4,935 bases of DNA from a virus (taxonomy: Duplodnaviria; Heunggongvirae; Uroviricota; Caudoviricetes): the IMG/VR virus record IMGVR_UViG_2519899565_000030; one strand, written 5' to 3'. Below, piece after piece: positions 697 through 4,593 of this stretch. Every line of letters starts with the position of its first letter. Within the stretch, counting starts at the first letter, position 1. The position numbers and the translations under genes are program-made. The notes beneath the pieces are model-generated. The model ran no database searches and was not told where the DNA came from. It saw nothing but the letters and a program-made list of their open reading frames with translations.

Positions 697-2975
<2,279 letters not shown>

Positions 2976-2983
2976 GGGGGGGG
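2976..2983. repeat. Homopolymeric G8 tract between P1 and P2; a complementary C6 tract lies at 3018-3023
   Basis: Read directly from the sequence: GGGAAGGGGGGGG upstream of P2 and TCCCCCCGGG downstream of its +1. Confidence 0.9.
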
Positions 2984-3006
2984 ACTAAACTATCACTATA
3001 GGGGAG
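2984..3006 (+). promoter_or_regulatory. P2: phage-type (T7/T3-like) single-subunit RNAP promoter motif, predicted +1 at G3001
   Basis: ACTAAACTATCACTATA|GGGGAG. Positions -8 to +3 (TCACTATAGGG) are identical to the T7 consensus TAATACGACTCACTATAGGGAGA. Positions -12/-11 are A,C as in T3, not C,G as in T7. The 21-mer GACTAAACTATCACTATAGGG (2983-3003) recurs exactly at 3541-3561. Confidence 0.6.
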
Positions 3007-3208
3007 AGACCCTAAGTCCCCCCGGGCTTAATACAGCCACCGACCCACACATTCATTAAGTCTCAGGCTTCCGGTAGCGGACCGATTGGAAACCATCCGC
3101 AATAAGCCTAGTGTTAAATCACCTTGGCCTGAGACCATTCCCTTTAACGTAGCAATCTCTCTCCTTTGACAGGCGGAGAACATCAGACCGCAGCGGAAGT
3201 ATCCGTCT

Positions 3209-3559
3209 ATGCGACCATCGGTGTGCGAGATTGTGAAGAACCAAGACATCATTGCTGAGGTCTGCCATCCATTTGTGGACAGGCGGAAACTCAAAAAGGT
3301 TAGACCAGTGGTGTCTGAGGTTGGAGCTTTGAGCCTGACCAGCAGGCTTGAGGAGACCATGAGTTCATCTTGTTATGGATTGTGTTATCACAATTCCAAT
3401 AAGAAGAACTTTAAGTCCAGCCTCCAGTCCTGTCAGCCCGAAGTATACTACGGTCGCTATGATGTGGTTCTCCATACTTCGGGTCTAACTGGAAGTACTG
3501 AACACTTTCGCGTCAGGTTCTCCGAAGTTCATTCCTGTTTGACTAAACTATCACTATAG
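3209..3559 (+). CDS. Hypothetical small protein (116 aa), uncertain; lies between P2 and P3 and its stop codon TAG is the TAG of the P3 core
   Basis: ORF with a possible SD (GGAAG, 3195-3199) 9 nt before the ATG. No recognisable family and some rare Arg codons. An overlapping antisense ORF exists, so coding status is unproven. Confidence 0.25.
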   Translation: MRPSVCEIVKNQDIIAEVCHPFVDRRKLKKVRPVVSEVGALSLTSRLEETMSSSCYGLCYHNSNKKNFKSSLQSCQPEVYYGRYDVVLHTSGLTGSTEHFRVRFSEVHSCLTKLSL

Positions 3560-3564
3560 GGACC
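3542..3564 (+). promoter_or_regulatory. P3: second exact copy of the phage-type RNAP promoter motif, predicted +1 at G3559; about 306 nt upstream of the Rha-family gene
   Basis: ACTAAACTATCACTATA|GGGACC. Identical to P2 over 3541-3561. Correctly oriented to transcribe the Rha gene and the downstream small ORF. Confidence 0.6.
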
Positions 3565-3864
3565 ATATCTCGCCTCTGACCTCCTGAGAGACGGCAAGCG
3601 AGAAACCGTGGTCCACGCTAGCTTGCTAGCCACCAGCCTCTGGTCAGCCTTTGTGTTCTTTGGTCTCGTGACTTAAGTCTATCACCACACACGCTCGGAC
3701 ATGCTGTCGAACCTTCATCTCTATGGTCATCGCAGACCACTAACCCCAATTACCTCAAGTCATTCTGTTTGCGTCCTGTTGCCTGCTGGTCTCCCTTTAC
3801 GTGGGGGCTTGAGTAGGTCAGTGGGGGTGCGACTTCAGGGTGCAAACAAAAGGAGTACACGTAA

Positions 3865-4593
3865 ATGTCTCAACAAGAAATCAGCGTCATTAACCTCGAC
3901 CAGCTTGTCTCCATGACCTCAGTTGAAATTGCTGAGCTGACAGGCAAGGAGCACCGAAATGTCCTACGTGATATTCGCAATATGGCTGAGGAGCTTAACG
4001 CGCTCAAAACTGAGCAGTGCTCAAAACTGAGCAGTCATATCGGGGTGACTGAAGATGTCTATCTAAACGCGCAGGGGAAACAGCAGCCTCTGTACCGTCT
4101 CGACCGTAAGCATACTTTCATTCTGGTCGCTGGCTATTCCGTTCACCTCCGCGCCAAGTGTTACGACCATATTCAGACGTTAGAGCGTCGAGTCCTTCAA
4201 CTGGAAGACCAGAAGAAGCGAGCAGCCATTCAGTCCGCTAACCGCCGAGGCGTGACTTGGGGCGACTACTGCAAAACCTATGGTCTACCCGCTCAGAAGC
4301 TAATGACCGCACTTCTTCAGCATCGTGGTCTCTTTCGTAAGAACCCAATCAGTAACGAGTGGTCTGTAAATCCAAAGTATTCCGACTGCTTCCGTATCAT
4401 TAAGCCGTCAGACCAGAAGTTCTCAGCAGGTGGTTATAACTTTCGCTTCAACGCTAAGGGATTGGAGGTCTTCGGTAAGCCTGCGATAGTCGATAAACTG
4501 CGAGGCATCCTTATTGCCTTCACTGGCACCGACCAGCAGAAGCAAGAGCATCTCCTGAAGCAAGCCCAATCCGGCAAGCTGGAGGGACTCTAA
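3865..4593 (+). CDS. rha: Rha-family phage regulatory protein (N-terminal Phage_pRha-like domain) with a C-terminal domain of unknown function, 242 aa
   Basis: SD AGGAG (3851-3855) 9 nt before the ATG. N-terminal motifs MTSVEIAELTGKEHRNVLRDIRN ... YLNAQGKQQPLYRLDRKHTFILVAGYS match the Rha domain as I recall it from phage phi80 Rha (IAEAFGKRHDDVLKSIR ... YKNEQGRKQPMYTMTKDGFTFLVMGFTG). Confidence 0.88.
   Translation: MSQQEISVINLDQLVSMTSVEIAELTGKEHRNVLRDIRNMAEELNALKTEQCSKLSSHIGVTEDVYLNAQGKQQPLYRLDRKHTFILVAGYSVHLRAKCYDHIQTLERRVLQLEDQKKRAAIQSANRRGVTWGDYCKTYGLPAQKLMTALLQHRGLFRKNPISNEWSVNPKYSDCFRIIKPSDQKFSAGGYNFRFNAKGLEVFGKPAIVDKLRGILIAFTGTDQQKQEHLLKQAQSGKLEGL
4002..4035 (+). repeat. Perfect tandem direct repeat, 2 x 17 bp (GCTCAAAACTGAGCAGT), inside the Rha CDS
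   Basis: Read directly: 4002-4018 equals 4019-4035. The unit length is not a multiple of 3, so the two copies encode different amino acids (ALKTEQ / CSKLSS) in the variable linker of the Rha domain. Confidence 0.9.

Follow-up and report, generated by a model that had tools for sequence, protein, structure and literature searches.

The DNA analyzed here (4,935 nucleotides, IMG/VR virus record IMGVR_UViG_2519899565_000030, Caudoviricetes; hereafter the window) contains an unannotated gap at positions 2957–3864, between the genes for a DUF4145 protein and a Rha-family protein. The window sequence is identical in Escherichia coli O26:H11 str. 11368 and ~85 other enterohemorrhagic E. coli chromosomes. 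The gap probably serves a ~6.7 kb integrative satellite of T7-like (Kayfunavirus) phages as a region expressed by phage polymerase, consisting of promoters, an RNA on the + strand, and a leader. Three co-oriented promoters (P1, P2, and P3) would be read by the single-subunit RNA polymerase of the helper. Transcription from P2 would yield a non-coding, multi-domain + strand RNA of ~380–490 nt (about 400–500 bases), and the structured leader after P3 would then serve the parasite's own genes. The RNA would remain silent until a matching phage brings its polymerase and would then be made abundantly. Most likely it acts in trans, binding a conserved component of the helper or the host and either favoring the satellite or interfering with the phage, since it is dispensable for the backbone of the element, lies in the cargo zone, and has single-stranded motifs that are invariant from E. 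coli to Rouxiella. Less likely than a trans-acting RNA are an origin that the element could not do without and a simple leader, and any specific target of the RNA is proposed with much less confidence than this general scheme.

Phage-type promoters in a gap without a protein gene

The first-pass annotation described the gap as a promoter-bracketed region lacking a convincing protein gene, and both observations were confirmed. RefSeq records of 100+ genomes contained no annotation between the DUF4145 stop (2956) and the Rha start (3865). The open reading frames (ORFs) listed in the gap, including 3209–3559 on the + strand (116 aa) and 3028–3360 on the − strand (110 aa), had no match to Pfam or PHROG families. 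The 116-aa ORF was confined to the allele of the window, and two relatives had no ATG-initiated ORF of at least 40 aa in the homologous stretch. Variable sites over this ORF were distributed among codon positions 1, 2, and 3 as 35/21/28, with no third-position bias, and the indels in its alignment were mostly 1 or 2 nt long, frameshifting ones being predominant. Since the ORFs are unconserved, family-less, and free of codon bias, with indels that shift the frame, the gap is not protein-coding. Conservation of ORF 3209–3559 as a protein, suggested earlier as a check, was not found. Sigma-70 promoters and intrinsic terminators occurred at or below chance levels in both the gap and the whole element. 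The class II pause signal ATCTGTT was absent from the gap, its only sites being in actS and in the integrase gene.

Exactly three copies of ACTATAGGG were present, each of them on the + strand (2964, 2995, and 3553), which places the transcription starts (+1) at G2970 (P1), G3001 (P2), and G3559 (P3). The tandem arrangement of P1 and P2, 31 bp apart, with P3 inside the region, had thus been located correctly. P1 (2953–2975, from −17 to +6) is degenerate and overlaps the stop codon of the DUF4145 gene. P2 (2984–3006) is a Kayfunavirus-type late promoter, and P3 (3542–3564) is an exact promoter of the same type, which probably drives the Rha gene and the genes downstream. P2 and P3 share an exact repeat of 21 nt; the 19-mer CTAAACTATCACTATAGGG was found twice in 31 kb and never in shuffles. 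Both promoters are identical over 22/22 nt to an annotated promoter of Kayfunavirus EcoDS1 (20819–20841), and they fit the consensus of the eleven annotated EcoDS1 promoters, which have CTAAACTATCACTATAGG in common. Among phage records, the P2-type sequence occurred at 1564 places in 221 records, about seven per record, and nearly all of these phages were K1F-like phages of Escherichia, Salmonella, Citrobacter, and Enterobacter. The comparison of the gap took in 50 loci from genomes and metagenomes (denoted by L numbers), and all promoter copies in them were on the + strand of the element.

P1 is only 71% identical to P2. At its position, relatives carry a second promoter type, TTATACCCTCACTATAGGGA, located 26–31 bp upstream of the first type (L004 11944, L008 6643, L028 5079). 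This type was found both before and after the conserved core of the region, and several relatives had a pair of type-2 and type-1 promoters at the position of P3. It matches promoters of other phages classified as Kayfunavirus, namely GW1, Ro103C3lw, SFP20/21B, and the Enterobacter IJM phages, and at −10 to −12 we take it to be T3-like from our reading of the published T3 consensus. P1 of the window is evidently a decayed copy of this second type, from which it departs at −8 and at −13 to −17. Position −8 matters in T7 promoters, and P1 is probably weak because of these substitutions. The tandem pair therefore makes most sense as adjacent promoters for two polymerase specificities rather than as a counterpart of phi1.1A/B in a T7 origin. 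Since the second type matches a different set of phages, the element may respond to two helper polymerases; the tandem promoters are probably also entry points for helper-driven replication.

P1 and P2 are separated by the G-rich tract GGGGAAGGGGGGGG (2970–2983, + strand), the length of which differs among elements. It contains a run of eight G in the window and about twelve in L008, while in L004, L005, and L028 it is shorter or absent. The tract looks slippage-prone.

Structured RNA between P2 and P3

The P2 transcript begins with a poorly conserved, indel-rich segment (3001–3045, + strand) forming a small 5' stem-loop (−15.4 kcal/mol, z = −1.7). The structured RNA that follows, designated module A, has a core at 3046–3424 (+ strand), supported by RNAalifold and by pair counts. 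RNAalifold applied to the module A alignment gave a five-domain fold comprising D1 (3060–3135), D2 (3148–3238), D3 (3244–3316, plus hairpins at 3317–3348), D4 (3350–3424), and an optional 3' long hairpin, D5 (3428–3493, + strand), in which CCCGAAGUAU at 3437–3446 pairs with AUACUUCGGG at 3474–3483. The core was conserved in all copies, including that of Rouxiella (Yersiniaceae), with ~68% identity over the segment alignable by blastn. D5 had a folding z-score of −2.9, and several of its pairs showed compensatory changes (helices 20–22). It is missing from the short variants L029, L031, L032, and L038, some copies ending at ~3422, and is replaced by insertions in L007, L013, and L021. Single-stranded motifs of the RNA were invariant: GAUUGGAAACCA at 3084–3095, UUAACGUAG at 3144–3152, UGAAGAAC at 3234–3241, and GACAGGCGGA, present in two copies (3168 and 3278).

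The covariation check across homologous elements proposed in the first-pass annotation clearly supported the fold. In 16 distinct sequences, 96.0% of the cells were paired and 34 pairs were compensatory, against 13.5 ± 2.1 in shuffles (0/500) and 5–13 in slid controls. With 31 distinct sequences, the values were 97.3% and 26 pairs, against 11.6 ± 1.7 (0/500) and 3–11, respectively. For example, GCGGA/UCCGC is replaced by GCAAG/CUUGC, GCAGA/UCUGC, or GCGU/ACGC, and CGCA/UGCG by CACA/UGUG, CUCA/UGAG, or GUCA/UGAC. One entire 7-bp helix exists in two versions, each of them fully complementary.

The minimum free energy (MFE) of module A had a z-score of −5.0 on the + strand and −3.3 on the − strand. 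Pairing reached 96% on the + strand and only 83% on the complementary strand; G·U accounted for 14.3% of the paired cells, and six pairs were G·U in at least 90% of the sequences. This G·U asymmetry and the lower z-score of the + strand indicate that the folded molecule is the P2 transcript.

No covariance model of Rfam 15 matched the gap, either in the window (E ≤ 1) or in the copies of Rouxiella (L013) and L007 (E ≤ 10); the families covered included C4/CI RNA, RNAI, group I/II introns, GOLLD, ROOL, OLE, 6S, tmRNA, and RNase P. A blastn search of the gap against 50,697 phage records matched the promoters and nothing else. From these comparisons, module A appears to represent a new structured RNA family.

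Leader of the P3 transcript

The P3 transcript starts with a 5' stem-loop (3562–3612, + strand) that includes the pairing of TCTCGC (3568–3573) with GCGAGA (3598–3603), followed by a small hairpin formed by the palindrome GCTAGCTTGCTAGC (3617–3630, + strand). Both hairpins, pointed out in the first-pass annotation as resembling RNase III processing sites, are present in the MFE fold, but the whole P3 leader folds no better than shuffles (z = +0.76), and the strong structure is found instead at 3046–3493 and 3770–3844. The non-coding RNA option of that annotation is thus strongly supported for the P2 transcript at 3046–3493, by covariation, the G·U strand signal, and the lack of coding features, and not for the P3-leader hairpins that it named. 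At the 5' end of the P3 transcript, relatives keep a hairpin of other sequence (UUCCGC..GCGGAA or UUUCUGC..GCGGAAA), with individual z-scores of only −0.7 to −1.7. The palindrome at 3617–3630 has no comparative support because among eight aligned loci it is common only to the close relative L002.

Immediately before the Rha gene lies a long three-tier hairpin, module B (3770–3844, + strand), with stems 3770–3778/3836–3844, 3782–3789/3818–3825, and 3791–3796/3803–3808. Its identity among elements is 80–84%, even in Rouxiella and before genes other than Rha, and RNAalifold of 11 variants predicted 32 pairs, 7 of them with compensatory changes. Module B ends 5 nt before the Shine-Dalgarno sequence AAGGAG (3850–3855), which precedes the Rha ATG (3865; 3850–3867 in all, + strand), and the base of its stem extends toward the Shine-Dalgarno region. 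Since this base approaches the Shine-Dalgarno sequence, module B may control translation. Long irregular hairpins, such as occur at T7-type RNase III processing sites, are located between coding units at 3770–3844 and 3428–3493. The earlier suggestion of a processed leader is partly supported, by the covariation-backed hairpin just 5' of the Rha ribosome-binding site and by the 5' stem-loop, which is kept in shape and not in sequence.

An inverted repeat of 18 nt with 11 perfect bp connects module A (3337–3354) with module B (3774–3791); the perfect part is 3337–3347/3781–3791, and the duplex would have ~−31 kcal/mol. Pairing between the two modules, which might couple them and is strong in Rha-type elements, was rejected since it is not kept by covariation in the other leader types: compensating changes fall within module B while module A stays unchanged.

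Module A as an accessory cassette

The capsid gene of the element (see below) was found in 309 E. coli genomes and module A in 163. Where module A is absent, leader and genes are otherwise retained. In Citrobacter koseri (L022), a type-2/type-1 promoter pair is joined directly to a P3-type leader, with no module A between them. A profile search for remnants of the RNA in module-A-less elements and in the EcoDS1 genome found none. Since repeated promoters flank module A, recombination between them can bring about its gain or loss. Absent from roughly half of the related elements, it appears to behave as an accessory cassette that infection would induce.

In the module-A-less elements, the integrase gene is followed by another insert (L051 3592–4090, L052 3776–4190), with two or three tandem sigma-70-like promoters (CTTGACAT...TATATA) and then a phage promoter and a 122-aa gene. 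These sigma-70-like promoters recall the early promoters at the left end of T7. In addition, nhmmer gave weak but consistent matches (E about 0.008) of positions 259–309 of the RNA-core profile to the ynfE-type integrase gene (L052 2650–2702, L051 2460–2512, L022 5639–5691), which may be due to chance.

A putative satellite of T7-like phages

The element shows the features of a satellite: it has an integrase, attachment (att) sites, and a small size, and lacks a complete virion, lysis, or replication set. No genes for RNA polymerase, DNA replication, terminase, portal, tail, or lysis proteins were recognized in it.

Downstream of the window, the element encodes a 329-aa protein (L004 14458–15447, L001 20318–21307) without family assignment. 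AlphaFold models of this protein had a pLDDT of 38 with a shallow alignment and of 84 with a deeper one, the pTM of the latter being 0.78. Comparison of the predicted fold with PDB yielded only HK97-fold capsid proteins and encapsulins (235 matches at E ≤ 0.001), with modest TM-scores of 0.3–0.43. Two distant homologues carry C-terminal Ig-like domains, which are often present in capsid proteins. The 329-aa protein is therefore predicted to be an HK97-fold capsid protein, and the island seems to make its own capsid because this fold is that of major capsid proteins. BLASTP searches revealed no similarity of the 329-aa protein and of a 163-aa protein encoded upstream to EcoDS1 gp10A and gp9.

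Two further features point to the T7 group. An unannotated 79-aa ORF (L004 15453–15692) encodes a full-length homologue of EcoDS1 gp7.3 (39% identity, E = 4e-14); gp7.3 of this group is a virion/host-range protein. The 15-nt sequence TCTCCCTATCTGTAT, located at 1205–1219 (+ strand) within the integrase ORF, resembles the helper sequences TTCTTTGAGTCTCTATCTGTAT / GAGTCTCTATCTGTAT at the annotated concatemer junction of EcoDS1 (177–184), with alignment scores of 21–32 against 19 ± 2.4 for shuffles. It is kept in every family member, across two integrase types and at differing positions and reading frames (other copies at L004 9685, L007 2930, and L013 5723); it is a candidate signal for packaging or pausing. 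According to the title of Chung and Hinkle 1990 (cited in PMC7697293), T7 packages plasmids bearing a T7 origin and the concatemer junction.

Together these features suggest that the island is a capsid-forming mini-satellite with virulent T7-like (Kayfunavirus) phages as helpers. The assignment of the helper rests on promoter identity, and for helper-dependent induction, packaging, and transfer, the helper promoters, the gp7.3 homologue, and the junction-like motif are hints from the sequence.

Alternative explanations of the gap

Several points weigh against the proposed expression region with a trans-acting RNA. Transcription from P1–P3 and the existence of a discrete RNA were deduced from sequence alone. 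The homologues compared are fairly close, mostly 82–100% identical, and partly mosaic; since two recombining alleles of a single helix account for many of the compensatory cells, the independent events are fewer than these cells. The scan of the gap and the element found no terminator after the RNA, so that unless processed it may exist only as the 5' part of a long mRNA. Comparison of eight conserved RNA segments with the 53 translation-start regions of EcoDS1 revealed no antisense target better than in shuffles, and the same was true for exact reverse-complement k-mers. Finally, the element of the window itself is interrupted by an IS66-family insertion sequence (IS) and may be immobile.

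It is unlikely, in our estimate, that the gap is a replication origin encoding a primer RNA. Initiation by the helper polymerase at P1/P2 would then prime the helper DNA polymerase, and the folded RNA would stabilize the R-loop or primer, as does RNA II of ColE1. This would suit an element in which no replication gene was recognized and where ~560 nt separate the P2 +1 from P3, ColE1 RNA II being of similar length. The phage promoters and junction-like motif of the element also recall the plasmids with an origin and a junction packaged by T7 (Chung and Hinkle 1990, known from its title as cited in PMC7697293). A T7-type origin has one or two phage-polymerase promoters, and these are present (P1 degenerate, P2 exact). 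However, the analogy with the T7 primary origin drawn in the first-pass annotation fails on its defining feature: no AT-rich stretch of ~60 bp follows P1/P2, the GC content being 0.50–0.55 across 2950–3100 and for 100 nt after the promoters, and its minimum (0.37 at 3370–3429) lies 370 nt downstream. The tandem promoters, moreover, differ in specificity, and the invariant loops suggest specific recognition, not simple hybrid formation. Because the RNA is missing from about half of the elements, in which the promoters persist, it cannot be the essential origin, while origin activity of the promoters themselves is possible given that the element has no recognizable replication gene. Still more doubtful is a purely cis-acting leader, in which module A would stabilize, process, or time the polycistronic P2 mRNA into the Rha and capsid genes in an RNase III-type manner, as in T7. 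That no terminator separates the RNA from P3 or from the genes downstream would be expected in this case, as would the RNase III-like size of the hairpins at 3428–3493 and 3770–3844 and the 11-bp perfect complementarity of modules A and B. On the other hand, P3 starts downstream of module A, and most of the mRNA would therefore lack it. Elements without module A have an unchanged leader and genes, the A–B pairing is not maintained when module B varies, and in complexity the fold of module A greatly exceeds the known leaders of this type.

The probability that the conserved region acts as DNA instead of RNA, for example as a packaging site, a protein-binding array, or a recombination site, appears very low. 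Packaging and replication signals must sit somewhere in the element, and the region does contain the inverted repeat GGATTGTG-TTATC-CACAATTCC (3376–3396) and the duplicated motif GACAGGCGGA. But compensatory changes within one strand, 14% of G·U cells, and six near-invariant G·U pairs are unexpected for duplex DNA sites, and the packaging-type motif is located elsewhere (1205–1219). As for an unannotated small protein or proteins encoded in the gap, the 116-aa (+) and 110-aa (−) ORFs are present in the window, but their lack of conservation, family, and codon-position bias and the predominance of frameshifting indels make this explanation almost negligible.

Beyond the general scheme of a helper-transcribed RNA, module A might found a new class of large structured RNAs, although we consider this tentative and slightly more open to doubt than to belief. 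Such an RNA would be an effector made only on infection, under the promoter of the helper's single-subunit polymerase, and would act as RNA (a protein-binding scaffold or decoy, a ribozyme, or a self-assembling particle) in the conflict of a capsid-forming mini-satellite with virulent T7-like phages.

Comparison with known systems

The CI RNA of P4 (Rfam C4 antisense RNA) and SviR of PLE, an element resembling the phage-inducible chromosomal islands, are likewise satellite RNAs encoded between a promoter and the first genes and involved in the interplay of satellite and helper. They are short (about 70–200 nt), made by the host RNA polymerase, and act by antisense pairing. Module A, in contrast, is a multi-domain RNA of ~400–500 nt with a helper-polymerase promoter, no Rfam match, and no antisense target found among the EcoDS1 starts. 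GOLLD and ROOL share with it a length of several hundred nucleotides, a multi-domain covarying fold, a location in phage-related DNA near tRNA genes, and an unknown function. Unlike them, module A matches no Rfam model, has a narrow host range (Enterobacteriaceae plus Rouxiella), and belongs to a satellite with T7-type promoters. Phage phi29 sets a precedent for an HK97-fold capsid system with an RNA partner: it encodes a structured RNA, pRNA, that functions as RNA during virion morphogenesis. Module A shows no similarity to pRNA, and since half of the family does without module A, this RNA cannot be indispensable to a packaging motor.

The gap resembles the T7 primary origin (phi1.1A/phi1.1B plus an AT-rich region) in having tandem phage promoters at its head, in an element that would need helper enzymes for its replication, and differs in the lack of an AT-rich segment, in its two promoter specificities, and in the conserved RNA structure downstream. 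Like the RNase III sites and late mRNA 5' stem-loops of T7, it has long irregular hairpins and a stem-loop right after the +1, as in the EcoDS1 phi10 leader. However, its predicted hairpins have no sequence similarity to the phage sites.

Among satellites, phage-inducible chromosomal islands that form capsids (cf-PICI) and phage-inducible chromosomal minimalist islands (PICMI) are also small integrative elements with an integrase, their own HK97-fold capsid protein, and helper dependence (both of the latter predicted in our case), without a tail, lysis, terminase, or replication module. The element described here is much smaller than cf-PICI (about 6.7 kb) and differs from both groups in its presumed helper, a virulent T7-like podophage, and in its helper-polymerase promoters, gp7.3 homologue, and junction-like motif.

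Temperate phages and large virulent phages have known satellites. To our knowledge, no satellite of the classic T7 group is on record, and our literature searches, which covered the literature incompletely, returned no description of one. The pairing of a capsid-forming mini-satellite with a virulent T7-like phage, if true, would itself be new, and the whole parasitic program appears to be under the control of promoters for the polymerase of the helper itself, in two adjacent specificities. A further result is a new multi-domain RNA of ~400–500 nt, for which covariation is unusually clear and Rfam has no relative. Bacterial RNAs this large and complex are, as far as we know, rare and usually prove to be ribozymes or scaffolds of ribonucleoproteins. 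The system lends itself to direct tests, with sequenced E. coli strains and common K1F-like coliphages as helpers, and the element is small enough for synthesis and could serve as a T7-inducible, self-packaging chassis.

Organization and integration of the element

The window begins in chromosomal DNA with the 3' end of actS (60–410) and a tRNA-Gly(CCC) gene (489–562, + strand), which serves the element as its left attachment site. Next come a tyrosine integrase of 535 aa (697–2304), the DUF4145 protein (2297–2956), the unannotated gap (2957–3864), the Rha-family protein (3865–4593, ATG at 3865; PF09669, 5.5e-17), and a 66-aa ORF. In related elements, the right end carries a partial copy of the tRNA 3' end, and comparison with relatives gave the size of ~6.7 kb between the tRNA-Gly or ynfE flanks.

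The relatives occupy two insertion sites, either tRNA-Gly adjoining the ETT2 island or within ynfE. The order of genes is constant: the integrase, a variable cargo gene, the non-coding stretch, one or two variable regulators (Rha, KilA-N, or unknown proteins), a ~60-aa ORF, the 163-aa protein, the 329-aa protein, and three small ORFs. It was the same at both integration sites and in Citrobacter, Leclercia, and Rouxiella. A scan of genome contigs added only three further species, all of them close relatives. No evidence of excision was found: small contigs with the whole element had no end overlap and ended at the att repeats.

In the O26:H11 island, an IS66-family insertion (L001 17089–19704; tnpA, tnpB, and an ISCro1-family transposase) lies between the 66-aa ORF and the 163-aa gene, and this copy is probably defective because of it. 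IS3 or IS4 insertions were observed in other copies of the island (L006, L007, L008, and L053). The slot between the integrase and the promoters (2297–2956 in the window) is a site of gene exchange, occupied by DUF4145 or by unrelated proteins of 202, 166, or 122 aa. By analogy, this cargo slot seems to be like the defence and cargo hotspots of other satellites.

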